This document shows, piece after piece, positions 15,897 to 34,585 of a stretch of 64,000 bases of DNA. The translations under genes were made by a program, and so were the position numbers. Source of the stretch: Anaerolineales bacterium (GTDB lineage Bacteria; Chloroflexota; Anaerolineae; Anaerolineales; E44-bin32); NCBI GenBank assembly GCA_041821665.1, contig JBGUDT010000006.1, positions 6,249 through 70,248 on the forward strand. Direction: 5' to 3'. How positions within the stretch are numbered: position 1 is the first letter of the stretch; each line of letters begins with the position of its first letter. The notes under the pieces were generated by a model that made no database searches, was not told where the DNA came from, and saw nothing but the letters and a program-made list of their open reading frames with translations.

Positions 15897-15925
15897 TTGA
15901 CGAGGGAATCTGTCAGTGCTAGACT
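15897..15925 (+). promoter_or_regulatory. Candidate sigma-70 promoter of the deaminase operon
   Basis: TTGACG (15897-15902), a 17-nt spacer, then TAGACT (15920-15925), 25 nt upstream of ATG15950. It overlaps the palindrome TTGTCTGACAA (15886-15896) and the CTGTCAG heptamer at 15910-15916. Confidence 0.5.
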
Positions 15926-15949
15926 TTTTGCGATGGTTTTGGAGGTCCT

Positions 15950-17329
15950 ATGGCGACATTACTTGTGAAGAATGCCTCCGTTTTGGTCACGATGGATGGC
16001 AGCCGGCGAGAAATACCTGATGGAGCTCTTTTTGCTCGAGATGGCTTTATCGAACAAGTTGGACCTTCAGATGAATTACCACAGGAAGCTGACACGAACC
16101 TCGACCTTGCTGGACACGTCGTTCTCCCAGGTTTGATCAATACTCACCATCATCTATATCAAACATTAACTCGGGCTGTTCCAGACGCACAGAATGCAAA
16201 CTTGTTTACTTGGCTGAAGACTCTCTACCCAATCTGGGCAAACATGCGTGCAGAAGACATACGGCTCTCCACGAAATTGGGGTTAGCGGAGCTGGCCCTC
16301 TCCGGCTGTACAACAGCCTCGGATCATCACTACATCTTCCCAAACGATTGTCGTCTGGATGACCAGATTGAAGCTGCAGGACAAGTTGGATTGCGTCTTC
16401 ACGCCTCGCGCGGTTCGATGAGTCTTGGTGAAAGCCAGGGCGGGCTTCCGCCGGATAGCGTGGTTGAAACCGAAACAGCCATCCTCGAGGATACTCGCAG
16501 AGTCATCGAAACCTATCATGATGCAGAACCAGGATCAATGATCCAAATTGTCGTCGCTCCATGCTCACCATTTTCAGTGTCCAAAGATCTCATGAAGGAA
16601 TCTGCAGCTCTTGCCCGTGGGTATGGTGTTCGATTGCACACGCATTTGGCAGAAACGATGGACGAGGAAGTGTTCTGTCTCGAGCAATTCAATCGACGGC
16701 CACTCGGTTATGCGGAGGACCTTGATTGGGCGGGGGATGATGTGTGGTTTGCCCACGCGGTATGCATCAATCCCGAGGAAGTCGAACGCATGGCTGCAAC
16801 GAGGATTGGCGTGGCACACTGCCCTTCATCTAATATGCGGCTGGCTTCCGGTATTGCTCCAATTCGCAGGTACTTGAAAGCCGGGGTCCATGTGGGCATC
16901 GGAGTGGATGGCTCCGCAAGCAACGACAGCTCGAATTTGCTGGCTGAGACGAGGCAGGCGCTGTTGCTCTCTCGCGTCGGCGCAGCCGTCGCTCCTGATA
17001 TCGATGATGTTGAGGATCTGCTCACAGCGAGGCAGGCGCTCGAGTTGGCGACCATAGGCGGCGCTCAGGTATTAGGTCGTAATGATATTGGATCATTAGA
17101 ACCCGGAAAGTGTGCTGATTTTATAGCCGTACGATCGGACAAAATCGCATACGCTGGTGCAGGGCATGATCTCGTTGCAGCGCTTGTCCTTTGTGATCCC
17201 GCGCCGGTCGATTATGCGTATGTGCACGGTAAAGCAATTGTGTCTGAAGGCCGGCTCCAGACTGTTGATCTGGGGCCTCTGATGGAGGCGCATAACAAAG
17301 CAGCACTCCGTCTTACTGCGTCTGCATAG
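15950..17329 (+). CDS. COG0402 amidohydrolase (8-oxoguanine deaminase / AtzB-like aminohydrolase)
   Basis: 459 aa. N-terminal LLVKNASVLVTMDG...LPGLINTHHHLYQTLTR, downstream HLAETMDE, and a metal-binding Asp in GIGVDGSASND. Confidence 0.8.
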   Translation: MATLLVKNASVLVTMDGSRREIPDGALFARDGFIEQVGPSDELPQEADTNLDLAGHVVLPGLINTHHHLYQTLTRAVPDAQNANLFTWLKTLYPIWANMRAEDIRLSTKLGLAELALSGCTTASDHHYIFPNDCRLDDQIEAAGQVGLRLHASRGSMSLGESQGGLPPDSVVETETAILEDTRRVIETYHDAEPGSMIQIVVAPCSPFSVSKDLMKESAALARGYGVRLHTHLAETMDEEVFCLEQFNRRPLGYAEDLDWAGDDVWFAHAVCINPEEVERMAATRIGVAHCPSSNMRLASGIAPIRRYLKAGVHVGIGVDGSASNDSSNLLAETRQALLLSRVGAAVAPDIDDVEDLLTARQALELATIGGAQVLGRNDIGSLEPGKCADFIAVRSDKIAYAGAGHDLVAALVLCDPAPVDYAYVHGKAIVSEGRLQTVDLGPLMEAHNKAALRLTASA

Positions 17330-17368
17330 ATGGCGCATAGGCAAGCATCCAGAGAGAGGGAACGATAG

Positions 17369-19159
17369 ATGGACCCGAATATGATTAGCGAAAGGACCAG
17401 AGGACTCGTCGATGTGGCGATGGGGAGATCCCCTGCAGACATGTTGATCAGGAACGGTCGCTGGGTTTGTGTTCAAAGTGGAGAAATCATTGATCGTACA
17501 TCGGTAGCTGTCAAGGCTGGGCGGATTGCCTTCGTCGGTTCCGACGCAGAGCATACTGTGGGGCCTGATACACATATTTTGGATGCACTGGGAGCGCATC
17601 TCGTACCCGGATTACTCGATGGGCACATGCATGTTGAGTCGGGGATGATCACAGTGACAGAATTTGTGCGAGCCGTCATTCCCCATGGAACGACTGGAAT
17701 GTTCGTCGATCCCCATGAGATCGCAAACGTATTTGGGTTGAAGGGCGTTCGACTGATGGTGGACGAAGCCAGCATCCAGCCGATTCATGTCTGGGTCCAG
17801 GTGCCTTCATGTGTTCCCTCAGCGCCTGGATTAGAAACACCCGGTGCTGAAATCGGCCCGGATGAGGTCGCTGAAGCCATGAGCTGGGAAGGCATCATCG
17901 GACTAGGGGAGATGATGAATTTCCCGGGTGTGTTCATGAGTGATGAGAAGATGCACCTTGAAATGGCGGAGTCCCGGGAAGCACAGAAGGTCGTGGGCGG
18001 GCATTATGCCTCCCTTGATCTAGGCATGGCGTTCAACGCGTATGCCGCAGGTGGCCCAGAGGACGATCATGAGGGCACCAGGCTTGAGGATGCCCTCGCT
18101 CGTGTGCGCCAGGGCATGAAGGTTATGCTGCGCCTGGGATCGGCATGGCATGATGTCGCCAGCCAGATAAAAGCGGTAACAGAACTTGGCCTAGACCCTC
18201 GCCATTTCATACTGGTTACCGATGACAGCCACTCCGGCACGCTTGTGCACGAAGGCCACATGGATCGTGTGGTTCGCCACGCAATTTCCGAAGGTGCGTC
18301 ACCTATGACGGCGATCCAGATGGCGACGTTGAACACCGCTGAACACTTTGGTGTATCCCGTGAGGTAGGCCAAATAGCCCCAGGACGATTTGCTGATCTC
18401 CTGCTTGTGGAAGATTTGGAAGCCTTTGAAGTAGGAATGGTGATTGCCCGCGGAGAAATCGTGGCCAAGGGTGGAAAGCTCCAAATCGATTTGCCTGAGT
18501 TCAGTTACCCCGACGAAGTCATGTCCTCCATCAACTTAGGTAAGACGCTCCAGCCAGAAGATTTTCGCGTAACCACCGCTCTGGAGGGGGAAGTTGAAGT
18601 CAATGTCATCGGTGTGGTCGAAAACCAGGCGCCCACACAGCATCTCCGTTTAAAGGCTTTTATCGAAGATGGCGAGGTCAGGGCAGACCCATCGATCGAT
18701 CTCGCCAAGGTGGCTCTAATTGAGAGACATCGCGGCACGGGGGAGGTGCAAGTTGGCTTTGTGCAGGGATTCGGTTTTGAAAGTGGCTGTGCCGTCGGCT
18801 CGACGGTGGCACATGATTCACATCACATGATCGTCGTGGGTACCTCTGAGAGTGACATGGCGACAGCCGCAAATACACTTGGTGAGATCGGGGGTGGGCA
18901 AATCGTGGTTCAAGATGGTGCGGTCGTCGCACAAGTCGAGCTTCCCATCGCAGGTTTGATGTCCAACGAAAAAGCTCAGGTTGTCGCAGAAAAAGCAGAA
19001 AAATTACTCGTAGCTTTCGAAACGGTTGGGTGTAAGCTCAACAATGCCAACATGCAACTCAGTCTTCTGGCGTTGGTCGTCATTCCCGACCTCCGAATTT
19101 CGGACATGGGGCTGGTTGACGTCAATACGTTTTCAGTCATCCCATTGCTGAAAAAATAA
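17369..19159 (+). CDS. ade: Adenine deaminase
   Basis: 596 aa. PGLLDGHMHVESGMITVTEFVRAVIPHGTTGMFVDPHEIANVFG is typical of Ade. The C-terminal domain contains GCAVGSTVAHDSHHMIVVG. Confidence 0.9.
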   Translation: MDPNMISERTRGLVDVAMGRSPADMLIRNGRWVCVQSGEIIDRTSVAVKAGRIAFVGSDAEHTVGPDTHILDALGAHLVPGLLDGHMHVESGMITVTEFVRAVIPHGTTGMFVDPHEIANVFGLKGVRLMVDEASIQPIHVWVQVPSCVPSAPGLETPGAEIGPDEVAEAMSWEGIIGLGEMMNFPGVFMSDEKMHLEMAESREAQKVVGGHYASLDLGMAFNAYAAGGPEDDHEGTRLEDALARVRQGMKVMLRLGSAWHDVASQIKAVTELGLDPRHFILVTDDSHSGTLVHEGHMDRVVRHAISEGASPMTAIQMATLNTAEHFGVSREVGQIAPGRFADLLLVEDLEAFEVGMVIARGEIVAKGGKLQIDLPEFSYPDEVMSSINLGKTLQPEDFRVTTALEGEVEVNVIGVVENQAPTQHLRLKAFIEDGEVRADPSIDLAKVALIERHRGTGEVQVGFVQGFGFESGCAVGSTVAHDSHHMIVVGTSESDMATAANTLGEIGGGQIVVQDGAVVAQVELPIAGLMSNEKAQVVAEKAEKLLVAFETVGCKLNNANMQLSLLALVVIPDLRISDMGLVDVNTFSVIPLLKK

Positions 19160-19194
19160 TCTAGTTGTCAAAAGAGACTGATTGAGAGATATCA

Positions 19195-19965
19195 TTGGAA
19201 AATAGAACAGGTCACTCGAATATACGATCGCTGGGGAAGGGTTCGAAGAAGATTCCCCGATACCAGCAGACGACGGAGGCGTTATCCTCGCTGCTCGATG
19301 ATATGGAACCAGGCACGTACCTGCCATCAGAGCCAACGCTCGCACGACAGATTGGTGTATCAAGAGCAACGCTTCGGGAAGCGATGCGGACATTCGAAGG
19401 TCAGGGGCGAATCGTACGCAGACAAGGAGTAGGGACCTATGTGACCGATCCACCATCGGTCATCGATAGCGGGATAGAGACACTTGAAAGCATCGAGGTC
19501 CTGGCACAGAAGATCGGTCTAGAAGTGGAAATGGGGGATCTAACGTTCGTAGATCGAGCGCCGAGCGATGAAGAGACCCGTAAATTTGACATCCCACCTT
19601 TAAAACTCGTCACCGATATCTCGAGGGTCATCATCGCAAAAAATCGGCCAGTGGCGTTCTTAATAGACACGCTTCCTAAAGATGCCGTACCCGAAGATGC
19701 CAAATCTGATCATTTCCGTGGTTCCATCCTCGACCTTTTCTTGAACGGTGGTGAACCTATCTTGCAGCACTCCATTGCTGAAGTAACCGCGGTAGCCGCC
19801 GAATCTGAGATCGCCCGACATCTGCAGATCCAACGAGGCGATGTGTTGCTCTATTTCGAATCCTGGTTGTACGCAGATTTAGGTGAAGCTGTGGATTATT
19901 CGAAAAGTTATTTTCTACCAGGGACATTTCGTTTTCACCTTGTCCGAAAAGTAGCTTCTGGTTAA
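19195..19965 (+). CDS. GntR family transcriptional regulator (HutC-type, UTRA effector domain)
   Basis: wHTH region IPRYQQTTEALSSLL...LPSEPTLARQIGVSRATLREAMRTFEGQGRIVRRQGVGTYV, plus a ~150-aa C-terminal UTRA-like domain. The TTG start is uncertain. Confidence 0.8.
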   Translation: MENRTGHSNIRSLGKGSKKIPRYQQTTEALSSLLDDMEPGTYLPSEPTLARQIGVSRATLREAMRTFEGQGRIVRRQGVGTYVTDPPSVIDSGIETLESIEVLAQKIGLEVEMGDLTFVDRAPSDEETRKFDIPPLKLVTDISRVIIAKNRPVAFLIDTLPKDAVPEDAKSDHFRGSILDLFLNGGEPILQHSIAEVTAVAAESEIARHLQIQRGDVLLYFESWLYADLGEAVDYSKSYFLPGTFRFHLVRKVASG

Positions 19966-20020
19966 AGAAGGATAAAGTAATTCAAGTTAGATACTCTATA
20001 TCGAAAAAGGAGATACAGGA

Positions 20021-20974
20021 ATGAGAAGCTTTGCAGGACGTGACATACTCTCACTGAAGGGGTTTGAGCGGGAGGAATTTTTTAGAGTGTTCGAGGCATG
20101 CGATAGGGTCGCGCCGTTCGCGCGAGACCGCCGTAATACGGACTTGTTGGCTGAAAAGACACTAGTCACCGCGTTCTATCAACCGAGCACGCGCACCCGT
20201 TTGGCGCATGAGGCGGCAATGATTCGTCTGGGTGGCCAGGTGACTGGATTCGCAGACGCCAAGATGACTCGAGCTGGAGATTACTACCAGGAGTCGATAA
20301 AGGACACCGTGAAGATGTTGGAATTTTACGGTGACGTAATTGTGATGAGGCATTTTCAGCAGGGTGCTCCCCACGAAGCGGCGAAATGGGCTTCCATCCC
20401 GATTATCAACGGGGGAGATGGCTGGGGTGAACATCCCACCCAGATTCTTACCGATTTGTATACCGTGCATCAGGAAAAGGGACGTCTCGATGGCTTGCGA
20501 TGGCTGGCTGTTGGCGATATGCGCATGCGCACAATGCACTCTCTTGCTTATGGCCTCACCCAATTCGATTGCCCGATAACGTTCGTTTCTCCGCCGGATA
20601 TGTCGCTTACCGACGAGTTTAAAGAGGACATTTCTGAGTTCAGCCTGGACTTTTCCGAAGCGGACCATGTCGAAGAGGCGATTGCAGACGCGGATGTGAT
20701 CTTGGTGGAGCCAGTTGTTCAGCCTGATTACACCAAATCCAGGGACGAACGGGGTGATGATGTTGGATTGACCCCCGCAAATTATAAAATCACCCGAGAA
20801 CTGCTGAGCACGAAAGCAAAGTCAGATGCCATATTGCTTCATTCGCTGCCACGCATGGATGAGATCCCCCCGGATGTGGATGCGACACGCTGGTCGCGAT
20901 ACTGGGAGGAAGCGTTCAATGGCGTTGTGATGCGGATGGGGCTTCTTGCGCTGGTTCTCGGCGCCATGGAATGA
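20021..20974 (+). CDS. Divergent PyrB-like carbamoyltransferase (aspartate/ornithine carbamoyltransferase superfamily), substrate unclear
   Basis: 317 aa. The carbamoyl-phosphate motifs are retained (QPSTRTRLAHE, VMRH, EHPTQILTDL, HSLPR). The position equivalent to the ATCase TR(V/I)QKER aspartate-binding motif reads LVEPVVQPDY, and the KGE(S/T) loop reads YYQES. Confidence 0.75.
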   Translation: MRSFAGRDILSLKGFEREEFFRVFEACDRVAPFARDRRNTDLLAEKTLVTAFYQPSTRTRLAHEAAMIRLGGQVTGFADAKMTRAGDYYQESIKDTVKMLEFYGDVIVMRHFQQGAPHEAAKWASIPIINGGDGWGEHPTQILTDLYTVHQEKGRLDGLRWLAVGDMRMRTMHSLAYGLTQFDCPITFVSPPDMSLTDEFKEDISEFSLDFSEADHVEEAIADADVILVEPVVQPDYTKSRDERGDDVGLTPANYKITRELLSTKAKSDAILLHSLPRMDEIPPDVDATRWSRYWEEAFNGVVMRMGLLALVLGAME

Positions 20975-20993
20975 TACTAAAGGGATTTGGGAT

Positions 20994-21064
20994 CGGGGAT
21001 TAGGGATTAGGTTCAACGACCTGATCCCTGTTCCCTAACCCCTAATCCCGCCACTATTTTTTTT
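20994..21064 (+). terminator. Candidate intrinsic terminator separating the two carbamoyltransferase genes
   Basis: An imperfect long hairpin, cggggattagggattagg ... cctaacccctaatcccg, is followed 6 nt later by a T8 run (21057-21064). Confidence 0.45.
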
Positions 21065-21083
21065 ACAAAGGAGGCAGAAACTC

Positions 21084-22064
21084 ATGCAAACAGATTTAAG
21101 TAGTCGCGATCTCATTGGTGATCTTGACTTCAGCAAGGAAGAGGTAGAGACCGTCCTCGAAGTTGCGCTGGATTTGAAGCGAAAAAGAGCCTTGGGTGAA
21201 CCTCATGCGTACCTGCGGGACAAGGTCCTGGCGATGCTCTTTTTCTTTTCGAGCACTCGCACGCGTGGATCCTTTGAGGCTGGCATGGCCCAATTGGGAG
21301 GGCACGCGGCTTTCATAGAATCACGCACGACCCAAATATCTCACGGAGATACAGAAAAAGAGATGGGGGAAATCTTTGGACGCTACTTCGATGGAATCGC
21401 CATTCGACATGTCGATTGGGGAATTGGAAATCGGTACCTCAATCTTGTAGCCGAAGCATCCCGGGTGCCAGTCCTAAATATGCAATGTGAGTTTTACCAT
21501 CCCCACCAAATCCTCGCTGATCTGCTCACGATTATCGAGAAGAAGGGGAGAGATTTGCGCGGGAAGAAGATGGTGGTCTCGTGGGCGTATGCTTCCTCAT
21601 ATCTAAAACCAATATCGGTTCCTCAATCACTGATCCTGCAAATGCCGAGATTCGGGTTGGATGTCGTATTAGCGCACCCCCCTGAGTTTAAGCTCATGCC
21701 TGAAATCATGGATCAAGCAAAAGAGCAGGCCAAGAAATTCAAGACTGGTTTCGAAGTCGTAGATGACATGAAGGCTGCCGTGAAGGATGCCGATGTGGTG
21801 TATGCAAAATCATGGGGTCCGCTGCTCACGACGACGGATCCAGATGAGGGTAAGGAAATACAGGATCGCTATCAGGATTGGATCGCGGACGAGGCTAAGA
21901 TGAAATTGGCAAAAGACGATGCAATCTACATGCACCCCTTACCGGCAGATCGAAACATCGAAGTGACGGATGGCGTCATCGATGGCCCGCAAAGCGTCGT
22001 GTTTGATGAAGCAGAAAACCGTCTTCACGTCCAAAAAGCCGTGATGGCGCTCACAATGCGATAA
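21084..22064 (+). CDS. YgeW-like carbamoyltransferase
   Basis: 326 aa with an AAGGAGG RBS. It has SSTRTRGSFE, IAIRHVDWGIGNRYL, NMQCEFYHPHQILADL, VVSWAYASSYLKPISVPQS..RFGLDVVLAHP, DADVVYAKSWGP and HPLPADR. The WAYxxSYxKPxSVPQ and KSW(G/A)P blocks match my recollection of E. coli YgeW rather than OTC (which has DxxxSMG). Confidence 0.75.
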   Translation: MQTDLSSRDLIGDLDFSKEEVETVLEVALDLKRKRALGEPHAYLRDKVLAMLFFFSSTRTRGSFEAGMAQLGGHAAFIESRTTQISHGDTEKEMGEIFGRYFDGIAIRHVDWGIGNRYLNLVAEASRVPVLNMQCEFYHPHQILADLLTIIEKKGRDLRGKKMVVSWAYASSYLKPISVPQSLILQMPRFGLDVVLAHPPEFKLMPEIMDQAKEQAKKFKTGFEVVDDMKAAVKDADVVYAKSWGPLLTTTDPDEGKEIQDRYQDWIADEAKMKLAKDDAIYMHPLPADRNIEVTDGVIDGPQSVVFDEAENRLHVQKAVMALTMR

Positions 22065-22078
22065 AGGAGCTATCCCGA

Positions 22079-23038
22079 ATGTCAGAGAAAAAAGCCAAGA
22101 AGGTAGCAGTGGTAGCCGTGGGAGGAAACTCCCTTATTGTTGATAAGGCTCATCAGACCATCCCCGATCAATATGCCGCCACGAGTGAGTCGATGAAGCA
22201 TATTGCCGGCATGATCGAGTCTGGATGGGATGTCGTCATCACGCATGGTAATGGTCCTCAAGTGGGGTTCATCTTGCGGAGGGCAGAACTGGCTCTTAAT
22301 GAACTTCACCCTGTACCGTTGGACTATTGTGGAGCAGATACGCAGGGCGCGATCGGGTACATGTTCCAACGTGCACTTTACAATGAATTCAAGCTGCGCG
22401 GGTTAGATAAACAAGCGGCGACTGTGGTTACGCAGGTGCTTGTAGATCGAGAAGATCCAGCTTTTACAAATCCAACCAAGCCGATCGGGTCGTTCATGGA
22501 TGAGACGACCGCGACAGAACGAAGCCAAGCCGATGAATGGGTCGTCGTCGAGGATGCTGGACGGGGCTGGCGAAGAGTTGTACCCTCGCCTCAACCGATC
22601 CGGATCATCCAGGTCGATGCGATCAAAGCGCTCATCGACCGCGGATTTACGGTAGTCGGAGTTGGTGGAGGTGGCATTCCCGTAATCGAGGATGCGGAAG
22701 GGAACCTGGTCGGCGTAGAAGCGGTTATTGATAAGGATTTTGCCTCCGCTCTCCTGGCAAACAGCATCGGAGCGGATTTGCTGCTCATAACGACGGCTGT
22801 AGAGAAGGTCGCCTTGAATTTCAATAAACCTGATCAGCAGTGGTTGGACCATATGACTCTCCCCGAAGCCAAGGGTTATCTTGAAGAGGGTCATTTTGCC
22901 AAAGGCAGCATGGAGCCTAAAATGAAGGCCGTCGTTCAATTCCTTGAGGCTGGAGGCACAGAAGCCCTGATCACCGATCCAAAAAATATCGAACGTGCGA
23001 TTGCGGGTGAAAGCGGAACACGGATTACTAAGGAATAA
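22079..23038 (+). CDS. arcC: Carbamate kinase
   Basis: 319 aa. Contains VAVVAVGGNSL, VVITHGNGPQVG, DYCGADTQGAIGY and GVGGGGIPV. It starts 14 nt downstream of the YgeW-like gene. Confidence 0.92.
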   Translation: MSEKKAKKVAVVAVGGNSLIVDKAHQTIPDQYAATSESMKHIAGMIESGWDVVITHGNGPQVGFILRRAELALNELHPVPLDYCGADTQGAIGYMFQRALYNEFKLRGLDKQAATVVTQVLVDREDPAFTNPTKPIGSFMDETTATERSQADEWVVVEDAGRGWRRVVPSPQPIRIIQVDAIKALIDRGFTVVGVGGGGIPVIEDAEGNLVGVEAVIDKDFASALLANSIGADLLLITTAVEKVALNFNKPDQQWLDHMTLPEAKGYLEEGHFAKGSMEPKMKAVVQFLEAGGTEALITDPKNIERAIAGESGTRITKE

Positions 23039-23144
23039 TGGAGCTTGATTGAAAAGGAGGTGGTCGCGGACGCATAGGTTGTTGAATATTTGAATATTAG
23101 GAAGAGAAGAAGATTAAGTGTAATTAAATCAGGAGGAATACGAA

Positions 23145-24407: not shown

Positions 24408-24500
24408 TCAACGAAAACGTTGATCACACTGGGTCGGCGCTCATCAACGAGCGCCGACCCTTCATCAAGAAGAAGATTTGTAGGGCAATCGAGGCTTGCG

Positions 24501-27202: not shown

Positions 27203-27204
27203 TC

Positions 27205-28173
27205 ATGGATCTCGTCATAATCCTCCACGCAGGTGTCGCTTCTGGAACTGTCCTTCTCTTCGCGACGATTGGAGAAATCTTCGCTGAACGCTCAGGCATC
27301 CTCAATCTAGGCGTCGAAGGTATGATGCTCATCGGGGCCATGAGTGGATTCAGCACCGCCCTGGCGACCGGTGATCCATGGCTCGGGGTACTCGCGGCTG
27401 TAATCGCCGCCGGACTCCTGAGCCAGGTCCATGCCTTCATCTGTATCACACTTCATGGAGATCAGGTCGTCAGCGGGCTTGCGCTCACTTTCCTCGGCAC
27501 AGGACTGAGCCTGGTCTTCGGAGAAGGATTGAGCAAGGCGGGCGCGGTTTCGCTGCTTCCGAGATTGTCGATCCCGTTCTTGTCGAGTATTCCCATCCTT
27601 GGTCCGATCCTTTTCCTGGATCAGAGCATCATGGTCTACGCGGGTTACTTGCTGGTCCCTTTGGCTGGATACTATATCTATCGCACACGACCGGGGATGC
27701 ATTTGCGAGCGGTTGGAGAATTCCCGGCCGCTGCTGATGCGCTCGGGATCAATGTATATGCGCTGCGCTACTTCTATGTGTTGATAGGGGGCATGCTGGC
27801 TGGCGTAGCGGGGGCTACGATTAGCCTAGCGGTGTCTCCGGGATGGTTCAGTCACCTCACAACCTCGGGTCAGGGATGGGTTGCGATCGGGCTTGTGATC
27901 TTTGCGCAATGGGATCCGCTCCGTGCTGCCCTGGGTGCTTACTCTTTTGGCGCACTGCGCCGGTTGATCCTCGATATCCAGGGACCCAGGTTTTTGTTCG
28001 GGCTGAAAAACCCTTTCTTCTTCAATCCATATTATGGCTTTTTCCTGCAAATGCTCCCGTATGCGTTCACGATCGTAGTCCTCGTGATCGGATCTCGGGA
28101 GGCGATTCGCAAGCGGATTGGCGCACCTGCGTCGCTGGGGCTGCCATACATCCGTGGTGAGCGAGGCGCTTGA
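27205..28173 (+). CDS. ABC transporter permease (BMP/nucleoside system)
   Basis: 322 aa, polytopic. Contains ERSGILNLGVEGMMLIGA. It starts 2 nt after the previous permease gene. Confidence 0.85.
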   Translation: MDLVIILHAGVASGTVLLFATIGEIFAERSGILNLGVEGMMLIGAMSGFSTALATGDPWLGVLAAVIAAGLLSQVHAFICITLHGDQVVSGLALTFLGTGLSLVFGEGLSKAGAVSLLPRLSIPFLSSIPILGPILFLDQSIMVYAGYLLVPLAGYYIYRTRPGMHLRAVGEFPAAADALGINVYALRYFYVLIGGMLAGVAGATISLAVSPGWFSHLTTSGQGWVAIGLVIFAQWDPLRAALGAYSFGALRRLILDIQGPRFLFGLKNPFFFNPYYGFFLQMLPYAFTIVVLVIGSREAIRKRIGAPASLGLPYIRGERGA

Positions 28174-29447
28174 TGAAGGAAAAATTTACTGGATATCAGT
28201 GTTCCGTTTGCCAAGAAACATATGAACCGGGAGAGGTCGTGTATACGTGTCCCTCCGATGGGGGGAACCTGGATGTCGTGCTTGATTATGATGCGATCTG
28301 GAATACGCTTTCTCCGGAACGAATCGCTGATACCGATGATACTTCTATCTGGCGTTACCTACCGCTTCTCCCCGTCCATGACCCCGGGCATCAGGGCTCA
28401 CCGCTGCGAGACGTGGGGTGGACACCGCTCTACAAACCTGACAGGCTTGCCAAAAAATTGGGAATGAAGGACTTTTGGTTGAAGGATGATGGACGCAATC
28501 CAACCGCATCGTTTAAGGATCGTGCCAGCGCAGTTGTGATCGCAAGGGCGGAGCAGATCAAGGCTGATGTAGTCGTCACTGCCTCAACGGGAAATGCGGG
28601 TGCTGCATTAGCTGGAATGGCAGCGGCGGCAGGGGTTCCAGCCGTAATTCTTGCACCGAAGAGCGCTCCGAAAGCCAAAGTCGCTCAGCTCTTAATCTTT
28701 GGTGCGAGCGTATTCCTCGTGGATGGCACCTACGACGATGCCTTCGACCTGACGATTGAAGCCGCGGATGCTTTTGGTTGGTATTGCCGCAACACAGGCT
28801 ATAACCCTTTCACGGCAGAGGGGAAAAAGACAGCTGCATTCGAGATATGTGAACAATTGTCCAGCGCAATTAGCGCAATCGATAGCCCCACTGGTCAATG
28901 GTTATCTCCAGATGCCCTCTTCGTGTCGGTGGGGGATGGCAATATTATTTCTGGCCTGCACAAGGGTTTCAAAGATCTGCATCGACTTGGGTGGATCCCG
29001 GGTGTTCCAAGGCTTTATGGGATCCAGTCTACGGGATCGGCGGCAATCACGAATGCATACTCGACGGGCACGGAGGAAATCAAACCGGTCAGAGCCGATA
29101 CACTGGCCGATAGCATCGCGGTAGATCTGCCTCGAGATGGACTGCGCGCCTTGCGTGCCGCAACACAAACCGGAGGTGCATATCTTGCGGTTCCAGATGA
29201 ATCGATCTTGAACGCGATGCGAGATCTCGCCCGGGATGGAGGCGTTTTCGCTGAACCTGCGGGTGCGACTGCATATGCGGGTGTGATTGAAGCGGTGGAA
29301 CAGGGACTGGTTGCCCCGCAAGAACGAGTCGTAGTGATGAATACCGGCAGTGGACTTAAAGATATCGATGCGGCGATGGATGCTGCTGGGGTTGCTACAG
29401 TTATTGAGCCGAATCTGGGTGCGCTGCAAGCCGCGATAGGTAATTGA
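28170..29447 (+). CDS. Threonine-synthase-family PLP enzyme (fold type II) with N-terminal Cys-rich ribbon
   Basis: 425 aa. N-terminal YQCSVCQETYEPGEVVYTCPSDGG, PLP-lysine motif NPTASFKDRAS, and TASTGNAGAALA. There is a 4-nt overlap (ATGA) with the permease stop. Confidence 0.75.
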   Translation: MMKEKFTGYQCSVCQETYEPGEVVYTCPSDGGNLDVVLDYDAIWNTLSPERIADTDDTSIWRYLPLLPVHDPGHQGSPLRDVGWTPLYKPDRLAKKLGMKDFWLKDDGRNPTASFKDRASAVVIARAEQIKADVVVTASTGNAGAALAGMAAAAGVPAVILAPKSAPKAKVAQLLIFGASVFLVDGTYDDAFDLTIEAADAFGWYCRNTGYNPFTAEGKKTAAFEICEQLSSAISAIDSPTGQWLSPDALFVSVGDGNIISGLHKGFKDLHRLGWIPGVPRLYGIQSTGSAAITNAYSTGTEEIKPVRADTLADSIAVDLPRDGLRALRAATQTGGAYLAVPDESILNAMRDLARDGGVFAEPAGATAYAGVIEAVEQGLVAPQERVVVMNTGSGLKDIDAAMDAAGVATVIEPNLGALQAAIGN

Positions 29448-29468
29448 CCACAGGAAGCGAGGCACGAG

Positions 29469-30407
29469 ATGCATAGTAAAGCTTCTCCAGTCTTATCGGT
29501 GATCGGCCCAGTTTATAACGAGGCAGAGATCCTCCCGTCGTTCTTTACCCGCATTCGAGATGTCATGGAGAAAATCGGGGAGCCATGGGAGCTCATCCTT
29601 GTCGATGACGGCAGTGGAGATGGATCTACCGAGATCATAAAGGATCTGGCCAGAGAGGATCCTCACGTTCGCCCGGTGGTGTTTTCGCGGAATTTCGGCC
29701 ATCAGGTTGCACTTACCGCAGGCCTGGATTACAGCCGTGGACAGGCCGTGGTGGTGATCGACACCGATTTGCAGGATCCGCCCGAGGCAATTCCCGACCT
29801 CATTGTGAAATGGCGCGAGGGGTTCGAAGTCGTTTATGCCGTGCGAGCAGAGCGTGAGGGTGAAACATTATTCAAGAAAGCCACTGCATCTTTCTTTTAC
29901 CGATTCATCAACCGGATTACGGATGTGGACATCCCCCTGGACACCGGAGATTTTCGACTGATGGACCGGAAGGTTGTGGATGTCTTGAACACGATGCGAG
30001 AAAAGCACAGGTTCCCGCGGGCGATGGCTTCTTGGGTGGGCTTCAAACAAATCGGTGTGGAATACAAGCGGGACGCACGGACGGCTGGGGAGACGAAATA
30101 TCCATTTCGTAAGATGTTTCGCCTGGCGCTCAACGCTATCACAAGCTTCTCCTATTTCCCGCTCCAGCTTGCAACCTATTTTGGGTTCATTTGCGCGGGG
30201 GTGAGCGCCCTGGCAATTGTGGTAGTCATTGTGATGCGTCTCATAGGAAATCAAGCCTTCTTCGGTCAAGCCACCACTTTGATTGCGGTGCTGTTCCTTG
30301 GGGGTGTTCAGCTCATATCATTGGGCATCATGGGTGAGTACGTCGGACGGTTATATGACGAAGCGAAAGGACGTCCACTTTACATCGTGCGTGAGGATCC
30401 CGAGTAA
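29469..30407 (+). CDS. Family 2 glycosyltransferase, polyprenyl-phosphate glycosyltransferase type (ArnC/GtrB-like)
   Basis: LSVIGPVYNEAE, ILVDDGSGDGS, VVIDTDLQDPPE, GDFRLMDRKV, and two C-terminal TM helices. Confidence 0.85.
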   Translation: MHSKASPVLSVIGPVYNEAEILPSFFTRIRDVMEKIGEPWELILVDDGSGDGSTEIIKDLAREDPHVRPVVFSRNFGHQVALTAGLDYSRGQAVVVIDTDLQDPPEAIPDLIVKWREGFEVVYAVRAEREGETLFKKATASFFYRFINRITDVDIPLDTGDFRLMDRKVVDVLNTMREKHRFPRAMASWVGFKQIGVEYKRDARTAGETKYPFRKMFRLALNAITSFSYFPLQLATYFGFICAGVSALAIVVVIVMRLIGNQAFFGQATTLIAVLFLGGVQLISLGIMGEYVGRLYDEAKGRPLYIVREDPE

Positions 30408-30449
30408 GGTGGGAACAATAAAAATCAACGCGAGGAGCATATTTTTATA

Positions 30450-31910
30450 ATGATAGATCTACAAGTAATGGAAGAGCGGTTGGAGCGAGTAGTAGAGCGA
30501 GCTCGTGAGAGGGATATCATTATTCCGACGGTCGCTCAAATGAAGGACCCCTCCCTGGTCCCGGATAAGATCAAGGAGGAGTTGGGCGGTTTGGGGCTTT
30601 GGGACATTACACCCAGAAATCTTTTCCGGATTACGTGGAAGAACGAACCAGTCGCATCCGGGGGTGGTTTTGGTGGTGTCAATTACATCGAATTCCCACC
30701 GGCGCTCACTGGCGTGAATGCTAGAATTATCGCACTGGTCGGCAAATGGTTCCCTACAGGCTCTCACAAGGTGGGCGCTGCGTTTGGCTGTCTTGTACCT
30801 CCATTGGTGACTGGACAGTTCGATCCAACCCTTCAGAAAGCAGTTTGGCCCTCAACTGGAAATTATTGTCGCGGTGGCGCCTATGATTCCTCGTTGTTGG
30901 CATGTGATTCGATCGCCATTCTTCCGGAAGGCATGAGCAAGGAGCGTTTCGATTGGCTGGCAAGCGTGGCTGGAGAAACGATCAAGACTCCAGGCAGCGA
31001 ATCCAACGTCAAGGAAATATTTGATAAGTGCTGGGAGCTGCGAGAATCGGGCGAAGATCTGATGATCTTCAACCAATTTGATGAGTTCGGTAACTATCTA
31101 TGGCATTATGAGCTGACGGGTCATGCCATGGAGGAGGTCCTTAAGGCGGAGATGGGTCCAGATGACCGCTATCGCGGTGTGGCGCTGACGACGGGCTCGG
31201 CCGGGACGATCGGCTGTGGTGACTATCTCAAACAGCTATTCCCTGACAGCAAGATTGCTGCAGGAGAGGCGGTACAGTGCCCCACGCTTCTGGAAAACGG
31301 ATTTGGCGCCCACCGCATCGAGGGGATCGGGGATAAGCACGTTCCGTGGATTCACAACATGAAAAACACCGACATGATCATCGCGCTCGATGACAATGTG
31401 ATTGTGAATGTGGCTCGTTTGTTTAACGAACCAGCGGGAAAAGCCCATCTTGTGAATGAGGGTGTTCCCGAATCGCTCGTGAACCAATTGGATCTGCTCG
31501 GTTTCTCGAGCATTGCCAATCTTTCCATGGCGATTAAATTTTCAAAGTACTATGAGTTAGGGGAAAACGATGTCGTGTTAACCGTTTTCACCGATTCAAT
31601 GGAACTCTACCAGAGTCGGTTGAAGGAGATGCATGAAGAACACGGCAAGTACTCTGAAGCGGACGCATCAGCAGATTATGCTCGCTATATTCAGGGTCTC
31701 TCAACGGACGATTTGCTCGAATTGCGCTATACAGATCGTCGCCGGGTACACAACCTGAAGTACTTCACTTGGGTGGAACAACAAGGCAAGACCTTCGAAG
31801 AGATTAATACGCTATGGTATGAAGATGATTTCTGGACCAACATCCAGGGTCAGGTAGGTGAGATCGATCAACTCATCGAAACCTTTAATGAGAAGGTGGG
31901 TCTGTTGTAA
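30450..31910 (+). CDS. Fold-type-II PLP-dependent enzyme (Trp-synthase-beta/cysteine-synthase-like), long 486-aa form, specificity unknown
   Basis: Candidate PLP-lysine in KWFPTGSHKVGAAFG, an STGN loop (WPSTGNYCRGGAY) and a G-rich loop (TTGSAGTIGCGDY). A ~130-aa C-terminal extension has no recognisable family. Confidence 0.6.
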   Translation: MIDLQVMEERLERVVERARERDIIIPTVAQMKDPSLVPDKIKEELGGLGLWDITPRNLFRITWKNEPVASGGGFGGVNYIEFPPALTGVNARIIALVGKWFPTGSHKVGAAFGCLVPPLVTGQFDPTLQKAVWPSTGNYCRGGAYDSSLLACDSIAILPEGMSKERFDWLASVAGETIKTPGSESNVKEIFDKCWELRESGEDLMIFNQFDEFGNYLWHYELTGHAMEEVLKAEMGPDDRYRGVALTTGSAGTIGCGDYLKQLFPDSKIAAGEAVQCPTLLENGFGAHRIEGIGDKHVPWIHNMKNTDMIIALDDNVIVNVARLFNEPAGKAHLVNEGVPESLVNQLDLLGFSSIANLSMAIKFSKYYELGENDVVLTVFTDSMELYQSRLKEMHEEHGKYSEADASADYARYIQGLSTDDLLELRYTDRRRVHNLKYFTWVEQQGKTFEEINTLWYEDDFWTNIQGQVGEIDQLIETFNEKVGLL

Positions 31911-32028
31911 GCGCCGTCCAAGTAATCTCAGAAACATGCATGGCGGATTGCCTATCCATAAGATACGCAGTCCGCTTTGTCTGTATGCTAGAATGAAATC
32001 GAGTCCAAAGGATCGACAAGGGGGACAC

Positions 32029-32550
32029 ATGAGGGTAATTCTTCCAGATGATCTTATTCTCATTGCCATATTGAAGGAACCACGCGATCTTGAGATTGCG
32101 AGGGTGCTGGGCTGGTATCGGATTCCACTCGCTTCGGCCCCCAAGACAGTTCGGGTTGACTGGCTTGCTTTCTACCTTCCGTCGACGTTCGGCGAGTTGA
32201 AATGGTCTATCCGTTTTCTGGCGCCAGTTAAAGGGTATGAACTTCTCACCCGGATTGAATTGCTCAGAGAAGATGTGAATCATCCGCGTAAAGACGATCC
32301 CTATTTCAAGCTGCAGCTTGGTCCACTCATGGAGCTCCAAGAACCGATCACCACAGAACGCTGGCGGCGGTTCACTTTTCTGTACACGACGGGGGAACGA
32401 ATGCTAATGGCAAAGGAAATCAAAGACTTGCGGGTGCCACCATCAAACACCCGCGATCGGCTTTGGAAGATTTTGCGTGAGCGGGGCGATCTAGTTGAGA
32501 GCTCCAATCTTGAGGACACGGATCAGACGGTGGATGACCTGATAAATTAA
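32029..32550 (+). CDS. Hypothetical protein (173 aa), no recognised family
   Basis: ATG32029 follows AAGGGGGA. The sequence begins MRVILPDDLILIAILKEPRDLEIARVLGWYRIPL...VDWLAFYLPSTFGE. The ORF-track start at 31858 would overlap the preceding gene. Confidence 0.5.
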   Translation: MRVILPDDLILIAILKEPRDLEIARVLGWYRIPLASAPKTVRVDWLAFYLPSTFGELKWSIRFLAPVKGYELLTRIELLREDVNHPRKDDPYFKLQLGPLMELQEPITTERWRRFTFLYTTGERMLMAKEIKDLRVPPSNTRDRLWKILRERGDLVESSNLEDTDQTVDDLIN

Positions 32551-32658
32551 CAGAGGCTGATCCCAGCAGTTTCCATCGAAAAGACCACGGTCTATAATCC
32601 CTGAAATCGTCGAATTCTTAAGATACACTCAATTCACCGGTATAGTGGAGGATGCTCC

Positions 32659-34080
32659 ATGCCACATAAGCTAATTCATTCGGGTACGATCATTACAGCG
32701 AGCGAAATTATCAGGGCTGATCTCCTTATTGAAGATGAAAAAATTGTAGCCATAGGATCGGACATTCCACCTGACGTTCACGAGTCGATTGATGCTGAGG
32801 GGAAATTCATCCTACCCGGAGGTGTTGATCCGCATACTCATTTGGATTTACCGATGTTTGATACGGTTTCTTCAGATGATCACTATACCGGTCATAAAGC
32901 CGCCGCTTTCGGCGGTACCACCACGGTCATAGACTTCGTTCCACAGGACTATGCCTCCCTCAAACAGGCGGTGGATGCATGGCATGAGAAAGCGGATGGA
33001 AAAGCCGCCATTGACTTTGGTTTTCACATGAACATCACACAATTGGATGATGAAATTGAAACCCAAATTCCAGATTTGATCTCCGAGGGGATCACCACCT
33101 TGAAGGTGTTTACGGCTTATAACGGTCGTCTGAGATTGCAGGATGGGGAAATCTTCCGTGTGATGCGCGTTGGGGCGGAGCACGGCATGCTCACGATGCT
33201 GCATGCCGAGAATGGTGATGTCATAGACGTTCTCACGAAGGAGGCATTGGCGGCTGGTCACACCGAGCCTGAATGGCATGCGCAAACTCGGCCCGCGTGG
33301 GGCGCAGTCGAGTCCGTCTTGCGCGGGATCGCTTTAGCGCAGCAAGCCGGCGCGCCTCTTTATGTGGTTCACCTGAACACCGCTGGGGGTTTGGAGCAAA
33401 TCCAGTACGGTCGGGCGCATGGGGTGGCTGTCATGGCGGAGACATGCCCGCAGTATTTGTTTTTCACAGAAGAACACTTAAGGAGCCCAGATGGCGCCAA
33501 GTGGATATGCTCCCCTCCGTTGCGGGGGGAAGATGACAATATAGCGTTATGGCGTGGAATTGCGGATGGCAGTATTCAGACTTTAGGTACGGATCATTGC
33601 CCCTTCTACTTTGATGGAACGACGCCGATCGAATATGAGGGGTCGCAGATCGCAATTCCCGGGAAGGAGCTAGGCGCTGATGATTTCACTAAAATTCCGA
33701 ATGGTCTTCCCGGTGTAGGTGATCGGATGCCCATCCTCTGGACGACGGGTGTAGGTGAAGGCCGGATTACGATGAATCAATTCGTCGAGCTAACGAGTAC
33801 GAACCCGGCGAAAATTTTCGGCCTATATCCGAAGAAAGGTGCGTTACTCCCGGGGTCGGATGCAGATATTGTTATCTGGGATCCCTCCCTGAAGGTCGAG
33901 TATGGTGTCGCGCACGCAAAACATCGGACGGATTACAACTTATATGAAGGTTGGGAGCTCATGGGGTTCCCAGAGAAAGTCTTTCTAAGAGGCGAGTTGA
34001 TCGTGGATGGGGGCCAATGGATGGGGAAACGTGGCCAGGGAAAGTTTATTATGCGCCGCCCCGGCGGGGAGATTTTGTAA
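32659..34080 (+). CDS. Dihydropyrimidinase / D-hydantoinase (cyclic amidohydrolase; HyuA/YgeZ-like)
   Basis: 473 aa. Contains PGGVDPHTHLDLPM, the carboxylated-Lys context GITTLKVFTAY, MLHAENGD and LGTDHCPF. Confidence 0.9.
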   Translation: MPHKLIHSGTIITASEIIRADLLIEDEKIVAIGSDIPPDVHESIDAEGKFILPGGVDPHTHLDLPMFDTVSSDDHYTGHKAAAFGGTTTVIDFVPQDYASLKQAVDAWHEKADGKAAIDFGFHMNITQLDDEIETQIPDLISEGITTLKVFTAYNGRLRLQDGEIFRVMRVGAEHGMLTMLHAENGDVIDVLTKEALAAGHTEPEWHAQTRPAWGAVESVLRGIALAQQAGAPLYVVHLNTAGGLEQIQYGRAHGVAVMAETCPQYLFFTEEHLRSPDGAKWICSPPLRGEDDNIALWRGIADGSIQTLGTDHCPFYFDGTTPIEYEGSQIAIPGKELGADDFTKIPNGLPGVGDRMPILWTTGVGEGRITMNQFVELTSTNPAKIFGLYPKKGALLPGSDADIVIWDPSLKVEYGVAHAKHRTDYNLYEGWELMGFPEKVFLRGELIVDGGQWMGKRGQGKFIMRRPGGEIL

Positions 34081-34120
34081 TCCGATATAGTTGAACCTAT
34101 TCTACATGTCTAAGATTATT

Positions 34121-34207
34121 CCGTAGGCGTGGACCCGTGTGTCTGCCCGAGGAGTATCCAGGATACTGGTTAGAGGGCCGCCACGAAGGGCGGCCCCCAC
34201 ACAAATG
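34121..34207 (+). repeat. ~87-nt direct repeat, copy 1
   Basis: ccgtaggcgtggacccgtgtgtctgcccgaggagtatccaggatactggttagagggccgccacgaagggcggcccccacacaaatg is nearly identical to 34417-34505. It contains the palindrome agtatccaggatact and the hairpin gggccgcc/ggcggccc. Confidence 0.85.
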
Positions 34208-34505: not shown

Positions 34506-34585
34506 GGCAAGTAGAGACGCCCCGGCGGGACGTCTCTACCATCGTGACCTCCCAAAATGGCAAACAATAGACGGCCTGGTCGAAT

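Follow-up and report, generated by a model that had tools for sequence, protein, structure and literature searches.

Can a purine-degrading gene cluster that lacks both YgeY and YgeX still lead from urate to pyruvate, and if so, with which enzymes? This question is raised by a block of genes at positions 15950–34080 of a 64-kb stretch of DNA (hereafter, the window) from an Anaerolineales bacterium (assembly GCA_041821665.1, contig JBGUDT010000006.1). The block consists of fifteen genes, on the + strand throughout and with intergenic gaps of −4 to 118 bp, that encode, among other proteins, two carbamoyltransferases (denoted CT1 and CT2), a carbamate kinase (CK), two fold-type-II pyridoxal phosphate (PLP) enzymes (denoted ThrC-like and PLP486), and a HyuA-type hydantoinase. 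Families were assigned by Pfam and NCBIfam profile searches, with NCBIfam scores given below in bits against the curated cutoffs; these searches confirmed the gene list and the uniform orientation of a previous annotation made from the letters without database searches (the sequence-only reading). Judging by gene content, the block is probably the downstream or lower half of the reductive urate (2,8-dioxopurine) pathway in its F420-dependent Chloroflexota form. In the reading that we favor, with moderate confidence, this lower half would remove both ureido groups by phosphorolysis, and the PLP pair would replace YgeX.

The enzymes of the reductive urate pathway of Escherichia coli and Clostridioides difficile were reconstituted in 2025 (PMC12507026; 10.1101/2025.04.24.650524; commentary PMC12990295). 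Urate is converted by XdhD/YgfM to 2,8-dioxopurine, which is dearomatized by YgfK, or by UacX in C. difficile; SsnA then opens the ring to yield ureidomethylhydantoin, from which HyuA produces 2,3-diureidopropionate (PMC12507026; 10.1101/2025.04.24.650524). YgeW, with phosphate, releases carbamoyl phosphate, which YqeA uses to form ATP, hydrolysis by YgeY gives 2,3-diaminopropionate, and YgeX converts the latter to pyruvate (PMC12507026; 10.1101/2025.04.24.650524). The order of ureido cleavage is disputed even for E. coli, with two 2025 studies in disagreement (PMC12990295).

We compared the window proteins with those of the E. coli ygeW-xdhD region, where the sequence-only reading had correctly placed ygeW, yqeA, hyuA, and ygeX near ssnA, xdhD, yqeB, and yqeC. 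The anticipated gene-by-gene correspondence was found, the best matches falling in this region and being mostly reciprocal. HyuA of the window (32659–34080; 473 aa; D-hydantoinase/dihydropyrimidinase model TIGR02033, 544 vs cutoff 393) is 41% identical to E. coli HyuA over 469 aa, CK (22079–23038; 319 aa; TIGR00746, 372 vs cutoff 358) is 51% identical to YqeA, and CT2 is 34% identical to YgeW (1e-57; reciprocal best match within that cluster). SsnA is 34% identical to its E. coli namesake, XDH2 is 36% identical to XdhD, XdhFAD2 28% identical to YgfM, and YqeB 47% identical to YqeB; the YqeC/MocA protein also has its best match in this region. The identities of CT2 and CK to YgeW and YqeA support the suggestion that a carbamoyltransferase and carbamate kinase would together form ATP here. 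A tblastn search detected no homologues of YgeY, YgeX, YgfK, UacT, XanQ, or YgeV across the 64-kb window, in accord with the sequence-only reading, which had noted that no M20-family YgeY is encoded there.

The second part of the array lies downstream. The segment 41845–48274 encodes SsnA (NF005540, 519 vs cutoff 444), npdG, cofE, fbiB-C, cofD, cofC, and an LLM oxidoreductase; in particular, npdG, cofE, the fbiB C-terminal domain, cofD, cofC, and the LLM gene (43228–48274) separate SsnA from the XDH genes. This downstream block also encodes three XDH-like enzymes, XdhC, YqeB, and a YqeC-MocA fusion. Thus, the components expected of a reductive urate cluster, namely SsnA, XDH2/YgfM-like proteins, LLM and F420 genes, HyuA, CT1, CT2, CK, and PLP enzymes, are all present in one conserved array. 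In a single sentence, Li et al. noted that an F420-dependent LLM oxidoreductase takes the place of YgfK in the SsnA clusters of Chloroflexota (PMC12507026).

In all, 80 related genomic loci were collected by similarity to the ThrC-like protein, and all window proteins were mapped onto them. The order GntR-CT1-CT2-CK-[Bmp ABC]-ThrC-like-GT2-PLP486-orf173-HyuA-(XDH)-SsnA-npdG-cofE is kept in Anaerolineae. CT1 is directly followed by CT2 in 29 of 29 loci, with CK next after CT2 in 26, and the GntR regulator lies directly 5' of CT1 in 19 related loci. Among the 23 relatives that reach far enough, the gene directly after HyuA is SsnA in 12 and the one for the XDH FAD subunit, 150 bp away, in 10, or 22 of 23 in all, so that the blocks at 15.9–34 kb and 37.9–62.9 kb form one conserved unit. 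This finding, together with the gene order conserved over the 80 loci, bears out the earlier proposal of a purine island continuous with 37865–62880. None of these 23 relatives carries the DUF937/ABC-2 segment that separates HyuA from the next pathway gene in the window; the segment at 34081–37988 is therefore a lineage-specific insertion and not part of the pathway.

CT1 (20021–20974; 317 aa) carries the carbamoyl-phosphate-binding motifs STRTR, HPTQ, and HSLPR, invariant in 28 orthologues, with HSLP in the position where aspartate carbamoyltransferase (ATCase) has HP[LG]P. The RxQxER motif of the 240s loop, which binds aspartate in ATCase (R229 and Q231 in E. coli; PMC4581275, PMC4016543), is replaced in all 28 orthologues by a loop that is 8 residues longer, (V/M)EPVVQPDYTK. 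With STRT and HPTQ intact, HxLP altered, and RxQ gone, CT1 is, by the sequence criteria of Barba 2013 and Shi 2015, a pseudo-ATCase and not PyrB (PMC4016543, PMC4581275). Its setting consists of the GntR gene, CT2, and carbamate kinase, and never includes pyrC or pyrI. Among 1.8 billion representative proteins, the nearest non-orthologous relatives of CT1 (41–47% identity) also lack RxQ and have in common a TRAGD(Y/F)Y 80s loop; true ATCases rank after these, at about 36–42% identity. A search of plasmids with CT1 retrieved only true pyrB genes (35–40% identity). Allantoate, the substrate of one characterized pseudo-ATCase, is diureidoacetate, one carbon shorter than diureidopropionate. The pseudo-ATCase of Rubrobacter (group 1), encoded alongside carbamate kinase, phosphorolyzes allantoate, and that of Nocardioides JS614 (group 2) adjoins a ygeW homologue, xdhABC, and hyuA (PMC4016543). 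We propose that CT1 would cleave one ureido group with phosphate, replacing the YgeY amidase.

CT2 (21084–22064; 326 aa) belongs to the OTC/AOTC/YgeW-like carbamoyltransferases, falls under all curated NCBIfam cutoffs, and is labeled ornithine or N-acetylornithine carbamoyltransferase by JGI and NCBI. It lacks the DxxxSMG and HCLP motifs of ornithine carbamoyltransferase (OTCase): YAKSWGPLL aligns with YTDVWASMG of Pyrococcus furiosus, HPLPA is found in 28 of 29 orthologues, and all OTC models score it below cutoff. The proline-rich loop WAYxxSYxKPxSVPQ (WAYASSYLKPISVPQS) aligns with AYSPSYGKPLSVPQG of YgeW, and, like YgeW and N-acetylornithine carbamoyltransferase (AOTCase), CT2 has an extended 120s loop (HVDWGIGNRYL). 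These two loops are features of the knotted carbamoyltransferases (AOTCase/SOTCase/YgeW clade; PMC4581275), and their presence makes CT2 a putatively knotted protein. With YgeW, CT2 has in common AYxxSYxKPxSVPQ, KSW(G/A)P, and a short Gln-containing 80s loop (TTQISHGDTE), and it lacks the insertions and terminal extensions of that protein (326 vs 396 aa). The label "YgeW-like" given to it in the sequence-only reading is fair, but CT2 does not score as a YgeW equivalog, reaching 188–193 bits against cutoffs of 453–500. Compared with AOTCase (3kzc), CT2 has a very similar 240s loop (DVVYAKSWG...), a 9-residue deletion of the Trp-containing 80s loop, HPLP, and Glu at the position of Lys302, and scores 258 against a cutoff of 288 with the N-acetylornithine carbamoyltransferase model. 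With the OTCase motifs gone and YgeW and AOTCase features mixed, CT2 appears to be a compact knotted enzyme between YgeW and AOTCase. A look-up of the exact CT2 sequence found no record; the best 120 matches are 89–99% identical to it, and those that are named all come from Anaerolineales, Anaerolineae, or Chloroflexi metagenome-assembled genomes (MAGs). We propose that CT2 is the functional equivalent of YgeW acting on 2,3-diureidopropionate. Membership of the carbamoyltransferases in pyrimidine-biosynthesis or arginine-metabolism clades, which the sequence-only reading had named as a refutation, is not borne out: CT1 lacks the ATCase RxQ and CT2 the OTCase DxxxSMG and HCLP.

The ureido-cleaving enzymes of related clusters provide a context for this pair. 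E. coli employs the carbamoyltransferase YgeW and the amidase YgeY, and C. difficile two hydrolases, UacY and YgeY. Related clusters without CT1 and CT2 carry hydrolytic enzymes instead: a YgeY-family hydrolase (NF009555, 463 vs cutoff 321) and a D-aminoacylase-like amidohydrolase in Desulfovibrio caledoniensis, and a D-aminoacylase and a carbamoylase/allantoate-amidohydrolase-family enzyme in Haloterrigena and Natrinema. The Anaerolineae of the window type have CT2 and CT1 in these two places and, with a single exception considered below, no YgeY-type or D-aminoacylase-type hydrolase was found near their loci. A fully phosphorolytic version of the pathway, which would give two carbamoyl phosphates and two ATP per urate, is the simplest reading, and the lack of YgeY is probably made good by the second carbamoyltransferase.

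In the proposed scheme, purines would enter via the Bmp-type ABC importer, and their exocyclic amino groups would be removed by adenine deaminase (17369–19159; 596 aa; TIGR01178, 507 vs cutoff 472, with an Adenine_deam_C domain) and by a COG0402 amidohydrolase of the 8-oxoguanine deaminase family (15950–17329; 459 aa; NF006055, 672 bits, cutoff 532). The latter probably channels amino-oxopurines toward urate; it is 26% identical to E. coli GuaD, and homologues at 47–50% identity adjoin the PLP pair in Desulfobulbaceae and relatives. The downstream block would then make ureidomethylhydantoin with the three XDH-like enzymes, the F420-dependent LLM reductase in place of YgfK, and SsnA, and HyuA would open the hydantoin to 2,3-diureidopropionate. 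Both ureido groups would leave by phosphorolysis, one through CT2 and the other through CT1, and carbamate kinase would turn the two carbamoyl phosphates into two ATP. Finally, the ThrC-like enzyme would deaminate 2,3-diaminopropionate to pyruvate, with the CysK-like PLP486 helping or complementing it, the pair replacing YgeX, and the GntR/UTRA protein would serve as the local regulator. Gene identities, motifs, and conserved order are direct observations; we infer the substrates, the 2-ATP stoichiometry, and the division of labor between the PLP enzymes from sequence. The most complete version of the scheme, that is, a full phosphorolytic urate route yielding 2 ATP per urate, with a ThrC-derived diaminopropionate enzyme of F420-type clusters, a CysK-like lyase, and orf173 and GT2 as further components, is put forward only tentatively.

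The ThrC-like protein (28170–29447; 425 aa) has an N-terminal Cys motif, and its gene begins within the 3' end of the permease gene. All 80 homologues retain the PLP lysine (SFKDR or a near variant), and the model scores are mixed, above cutoff for TIGR00260 (197 vs 167) and below it for PRK08197 (285 vs 303). In 2003, Omi et al. reportedly found that R160 of Thermus thermophilus threonine synthase, the arginine of the NPxR motif, binds the substrate phosphate. This arginine, within NPxR(L/I)EGQKT, is present in four of four solved threonine synthases (2zsj, 6cgq, 2d1f, and 1uim); it is T or M in the window family and Q in haloarchaea (Haloterrigena). By this sequence criterion, the ThrC-like protein is not a threonine synthase, the substrate-phosphate arginine being replaced. 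It is 29% identical to YgeX over 173 aa, and PLP486 is 30% identical to YgeX over 46 aa; no DpaL model was among the listed NCBIfam matches of either protein, and none of the 80 loci contains a YgeX homologue. Purine clusters without YgeX in Chloroflexota, Desulfobacterota, and haloarchaea repeatedly contain the ThrC-like gene, which is partnered by PLP486 in both bacterial phyla and adjoins YgeY-type or carbamoylase genes in Desulfovibrio, an unclassified MAG, and haloarchaea. In Haloprofundus, it overlaps an M20 peptidase gene, mirroring E. coli ygeX-ygeY. Considering that it is the sole PLP gene in the haloarchaeal clusters, that it overlaps the M20 gene, and that YgeX is missing from all 80 loci, the ThrC-like protein is the best candidate for the replacement of YgeX, and we propose that it acts on 2,3-diaminopropionate or on a mono-ureido precursor. 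The sequence-only reading, which took these two PLP enzymes for substitutes of YgeX, is thereby supported.

PLP486 (30450–31910; 486 aa) is a CysK/CBS-like PALP enzyme in which the lysine motif TG(A/S)HKVGA is kept in 60 of 60 homologues (with one TRSHK and one SGAHK). In comparisons with the PDB, both sequence and fold point first to CysK, CBS, beta-cyanoalanine synthase, and Fn1055, at about 20% identity; the protein scores 78 against a cutoff of 351 with the CysK model, and each terminus carries an extra extension of about 80–100 aa. With a pLDDT of 65 and a badly modeled core, the poor AlphaFold2 model was used for family-level matching only. The protein is 100% identical to one from the Anaerolineales MAG GCA_041821465.1. 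In Anaerolineae and Desulfobacterota, the PLP486 and ThrC-like genes are directly adjacent in 17 loci and separated by GT2 in 44; PLP486 is absent from the haloarchaeal clusters. Standalone homologues (41–42% identity) were found on plasmids of Rhizobiales, Rhizobium sp. NXC24 (pRspNXC24a) and Bosea vaviloviae, with TauE/SafE sulfite exporters, M20 peptidases, amino-acid ABC or TRAP transporters, a thiamine pyrophosphate enzyme, and RidA as neighbors. The proximity to TauE and RidA points to a beta-lyase acting on beta-substituted alanines, which we propose as the activity of PLP486; the family may include sulfo-amino-acid beta-lyases. In the pathway, PLP486 could act on the other enantiomer, on beta-ureidoalanine, or in a replacement step before dehydration.

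This assignment bears on the principal alternative, in which the pathway operates as proposed but only CT2 cleaves diureidopropionate, CT1 serving another ureide (allantoate/ureidoglycine or N-carbamoyl-beta-alanine) and the second ureido group being removed by an unlinked amidase or by PLP486, which would eliminate urea or carbamate from beta-ureidoalanine (albizziin). Enzymes of the CysK/CBS family, to which PLP486 is assigned, convert beta-substituted alanines to aminoacrylate, the homologues of PLP486 near sulfite exporters and RidA suggest a beta-lyase, both PLP enzymes would then have a job, and the characterized pseudo-ATCase acts on allantoate. However, the invariable adjacency of CT1 and CT2, with carbamate kinase next, and the lack of urease, allantoinase, and uricase genes in the window argue against a separate substrate for CT1; furthermore, the haloarchaeal and Desulfovibrio clusters have two ureido-cleaving hydrolases, which implies two enzymatic de-ureidation steps. 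On these grounds, we consider this alternative unlikely and retain double phosphorolysis by CT1 and CT2.

Two conserved genes in the block, GT2 and orf173, are harder to accommodate. GT2 (29469–30407; 312 aa; Glycos_transf_2) is a polyprenyl-phosphate-type glycosyltransferase with two C-terminal membrane helices, PgfS/ArnC-like but below the cutoffs. It directly follows the ThrC-like gene in 52 loci (64–90% identity), lies between the two PLP genes in Anaerolineae only, and is absent from the Desulfobacterota and haloarchaeal clusters. The "orphan ORF" of the sequence-only reading proved to be a real conserved gene, orf173, shorter than listed, at 173 aa (32029–32550), as called by NCBI in a near-identical contig. 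It has 2255 homologues, all labeled "hypothetical," no Pfam match even at E = 10, and no PADLOC match. The AlphaFold2 model (mean pLDDT 82.6) has McrB-N, ASCH, and YTH as best Foldseek matches, all weak (E ~1e-3, TM 0.4–0.57), and the fold is predicted to be PUA-like (ASCH/YTH/McrB-N). The gene lies between PLP486 and HyuA in 29–40 loci. Horizontal insertion of GT2 and orf173 was rejected on composition, their GC and GC3 being equal to those of neighboring genes.

These genes feature in another alternative, under which the ThrC-like/PLP486 pair, GT2, and orf173 are non-catabolic, either handling sulfur or selenium for selenium-dependent molybdenum hydroxylases or forming a passenger module. 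Selenide and sulfide are indeed possible substrates of CysK-like enzymes, no catabolic role is evident for GT2 and orf173, and in Desulfobulbus-type loci the pair adjoins YqeB-/YqeC-type maturation genes without ureido-cleaving enzymes. Nevertheless, no such pair occurs in the selenium-dependent systems of E. coli and clostridia, the ThrC-like gene shares bases with the permease gene of the transporter and is directly followed by YgeY-type or M20 genes in three other lineages, and the haloarchaeal clusters keep it among SsnA, HyuA, LLM, and carbamoylase genes, all of which renders a non-catabolic role improbable. That the block is a reductive pyrimidine or hydantoin utilization operon, or that CT1 and CT2 are ordinary biosynthetic PyrB and ArgF, is very unlikely: although HyuA scores as a dihydropyrimidinase, CT1 passes the ATCase cutoff, and CT2 is annotated as described above, E. 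coli HyuA belongs to the same family, the window contains no dihydropyrimidine dehydrogenase, pyr, or arg genes, the ATCase RxQ, the OTCase DxxxSMG/HCLP, and the Trp-containing AOTCase 80s loop are all absent, and the genes are fixed beside carbamate kinase, adenine deaminase, XDH, and SsnA.

Several observations weigh against the favored reading of a lower urate pathway with double phosphorolysis and a PLP pair. CT1 exceeds the ATCase model TIGR00670 by 5 bits (242 vs cutoff 237) and the ThrC-like protein exceeds TIGR00260, so that curated hidden Markov models would name them PyrB and ThrC. One Anaerolineae locus (L065) encodes a 40% identical YgeY-like M20 protein in addition to CT1 and CT2, and four relatives have the Bmp gene directly after CT1-CT2, where a carbamate kinase gene would be expected. 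YgeY and YgeX are missing from the 64-kb window, and copies of these, or a second PyrB, may be encoded elsewhere in the genome. The loci having been gathered through the ThrC-like protein, all co-occurrence counts are conditioned on its presence. The model gives no reason for two PLP enzymes and no place to GT2 and orf173. Finally, in some Desulfobacterota the PLP pair is accompanied by YqeB/YqeC and a COG0402 amidohydrolase, but no enzyme for ureido cleavage is encoded within 10 kb.

Four loci from Desulfobulbus, Desulfocapsa, and Desulfobacterales MAGs (L061, L075, L078, and L063) have the PLP pair next to a 42–50% homologue of the 8-oxoguanine-deaminase-family protein, and a ureido-cleaving enzyme was not found within 10 kb in any of the four. 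YqeB-like (XdhC-family) genes are present in L061, L075, and L078, with Bmp ABC transporter genes also in L061 and L075; L063 has XDH genes and a xanthine permease in place of the YqeB-like genes. L061, the only one of the four annotated in detail, further encodes YqeC, DUF5020, and a P-loop protein. A different arrangement was observed in Desulfovibrio caledoniensis (CP195092.1, 3063444–3084682), where a YgeV-like sigma-54 regulator and a TRAP transporter precede the ThrC-like gene, PLP486, the YgeY-family hydrolase, and the D-aminoacylase-like amidohydrolase; this is perhaps a stand-alone lower-pathway module with an imported ureido acid as substrate.

An F420-type cluster was also identified on haloarchaeal megaplasmids, namely pHTUR01 of Haloterrigena turkmenica (198704–218579), a plasmid of Natrinema sp. 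DC36, and pHMA411 of Haloarcula marismortui. The Natrinema cluster includes cofH, and the Haloarcula cluster a BMP ABC transporter and an NCS2 permease. The ThrC-like protein, labeled threonine synthase in the haloarchaeal records examined, is the sole PLP enzyme in these clusters. The 2025 urate-pathway papers surveyed bacteria only (PMC12507026; 10.1101/2025.04.24.650524).

Uptake and regulation were considered next to the catabolic genes. The Bmp/PnrA-type ABC importer (23145–28173; Pfam Bmp, ABC_tran x2, BPD_transp_2 x2) is encoded by four genes, for a lipoprotein binding protein with the lipobox LAAC (23145–24407), an ATPase (24420 or, probably, 24501 to 26072), and two permeases (26069–27202 and 27205–28173). 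The sequence-only reading had called it a nucleoside importer; Pfam agrees on the four-gene BMP-type system, and the nucleoside specificity was not confirmed. It is the only importer in the island, in which tblastn detected no UacT, XanQ, or GhxQ homologue. The regulator gene (19195–19965; 256 aa; Pfam GntR and UTRA) encodes a GntR/HutC-type protein, for which the sequence-only reading had suggested looking for an operator shared among the promoters. No such operator emerged: the HutC-type consensus GTnTAnAC, with 6 matches where 5 are expected, shows no enrichment, the candidate purine promoters have no 11-mer or palindrome in common, and in 24 relatives nothing upstream of CT1 is conserved except the ribosome-binding site. 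Rfam matched no riboswitch or other RNA in the whole window. A promoter-like site (15897–15925, + strand; TTGACG-17-TAGACT with an upstream TG) lies ahead of the first gene, at the coordinate where the sequence-only reading had the block begin; it is a consensus match only, and the count of such sites in the region does not exceed the shuffle expectation.

At its left edge, the island is preceded by a terminator-like hairpin (15711–15739) that closes the upstream FolD unit. The DNA upstream of 15.9 kb carries housekeeping genes (gyrB, sigma factors, FolD), as do bases 1–14 kb taken alone, so that the purine island begins at about 15.9 kb and the idea of a "first purine block" in the upstream region was rejected. 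Just 5' of FolD and the island, positions 12131–14194 encode a Ser/Thr protein kinase fused to a TolB-like beta-propeller. A REP-like, terminator-like hairpin (CCTCACCCCAACCCCTCTC...GAGAGGGGTT) occurs in three copies, at 15702–15739 (+), 35639–35657 (−), and 37801–37819 (−), with 0.01 expected by chance; one copy is at the left edge of the island and two flank the ABC-2 exporter genes. The insertion at 34081–37988, between HyuA and the XDH/SsnA/F420 genes, consists of a DUF937 gene (34755–35342, −), the ABC-2 exporter (35695–37634, +; both from Pfam), and repeat-rich intergenic DNA. In its 674-bp intergenic region 34081–34754, a hairpin, GGGCCGCCACGAAGGGCGGCCC, is duplicated at 34175 and 34471 and accompanied by further inverted repeats, with no Rfam match. 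The palindrome GTATCCnGGATAC is paired at 5207/5225, 34154/34450, and 35482/35500, located respectively 5' of an ECF sigma gene, between HyuA and DUF937, and 5' of the ABC-2 ATPase gene (8 matches at ≤2 mismatches, 1.8 expected); it is likely the operator of some regulator and is unrelated to the purine promoters. Within the downstream block, we also observed a 4HBT thioesterase-fold ORF after the F420/LLM genes (48320–48817), a DHH-family protein between XDH2 and XdhC (52657–54000; annotated as a putative Mn-dependent inorganic pyrophosphatase, below cutoffs), and a 605-aa DUF6909 protein between XDH subunit genes (56630–58447; 733 bits).

In the literature consulted, we found nothing on the PLP pair, on urate clusters with two carbamoyltransferases, or on Anaerolineae purine/F420 clusters beyond Li et al. 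The sequence similarity network survey of these authors scored only the presence of Pfam domains (PF00185, PF00291, and PF01546) within 15 genes, and the paper makes no mention of a second carbamoyltransferase, of clusters lacking YgeY and YgeX, or of the ThrC-like/CysK-like pair, GT2, and orf173 (PMC12507026). Three features of the operon thus appear to be undescribed: the pair of CT1 and the compact knotted CT2 in place of YgeW and YgeY; the replacement of YgeX by a ThrC-like (and CysK-like) enzyme, which reaches Desulfobacterota and haloarchaea; and the two conserved genes GT2 and orf173. Anaerolineales are common in digesters and sediments. A pathway worked out in 2025 in gut bacteria seems to have been rebuilt with other parts in environmental anaerobes and, apparently, haloarchaea. 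If both ureido groups are phosphorolyzed, the ATP yield per urate would double (two vs one). This would matter for the energy balance of purine fermentation and for deciding which enzymes to build into uricolytic probiotics, an issue raised by Li et al. (PMC12507026). The combination of CT1 and CT2 would further constitute a natural experiment on which ureido group goes first, the point of disagreement between the 2025 studies. Candidate functions are also suggested for three widely misannotated families, the pseudo-ATCase (as aspartate carbamoyltransferase), CT2 (as ornithine/N-acetylornithine carbamoyltransferase), and the ThrC-like protein.

Comparison with known systems delineates what is shared and what is distinct. 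The published pseudo-ATCases have STRT, HPTQ, an altered HxLP, and no RxQ, all as in CT1; the EPVVQPDYTK loop, as aligned, falls outside the three published signatures, AIA-type, GX[SC], and VXP (the VQP triplet being out of register). The arginine deiminase pathway, with its catabolic OTCase and carbamate kinase, employs like chemistry, from a ureido group and phosphate through carbamoyl phosphate to ATP, but on other substrates, both CT1 and CT2 being devoid of ornithine-binding motifs. The E. coli ygeW-xdhD region and the window have a common logic, in which the ring is opened to diureidopropionate, carbamoyl phosphate gives ATP, and a PLP enzyme acts last. Unlike E. coli, the window has no YgeY, YgeX, YgfK, or UacT and has a second carbamoyltransferase (the pseudo-ATCase), the ThrC-like and CysK-like PLP pair, a Bmp ABC importer, an F420/LLM reductase, and a GntR regulator where E. 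coli has YgeV. In the C. difficile variant, with the D-aminoacylase UacY and YgeY, both cleavages are hydrolytic; the same intermediates are expected in the window, where both cleavages would instead be phosphorolytic and energy-conserving. The relatives of the window cluster in Desulfovibrio caledoniensis and haloarchaea use the hydrolytic solution of the C. difficile type. In the haloarchaeal clusters, LLM (60%), XDH (47%, to XDH2), ThrC-like (40%), and npdG (37%) are identical to the window proteins to the extent indicated, and SsnA-like and HyuA-like proteins are present; in contrast to the window, ureido cleavage is assigned to a D-aminoacylase and a carbamoylase-family hydrolase, and carbamoyltransferases, carbamate kinase, PLP486, GT2, and orf173 are missing. 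The window, with SsnA beside npdG, F420-biosynthesis genes, and the LLM oxidoreductase, is a representative of the F420-type SsnA clusters of Chloroflexota noted by Li et al. (PMC12507026).

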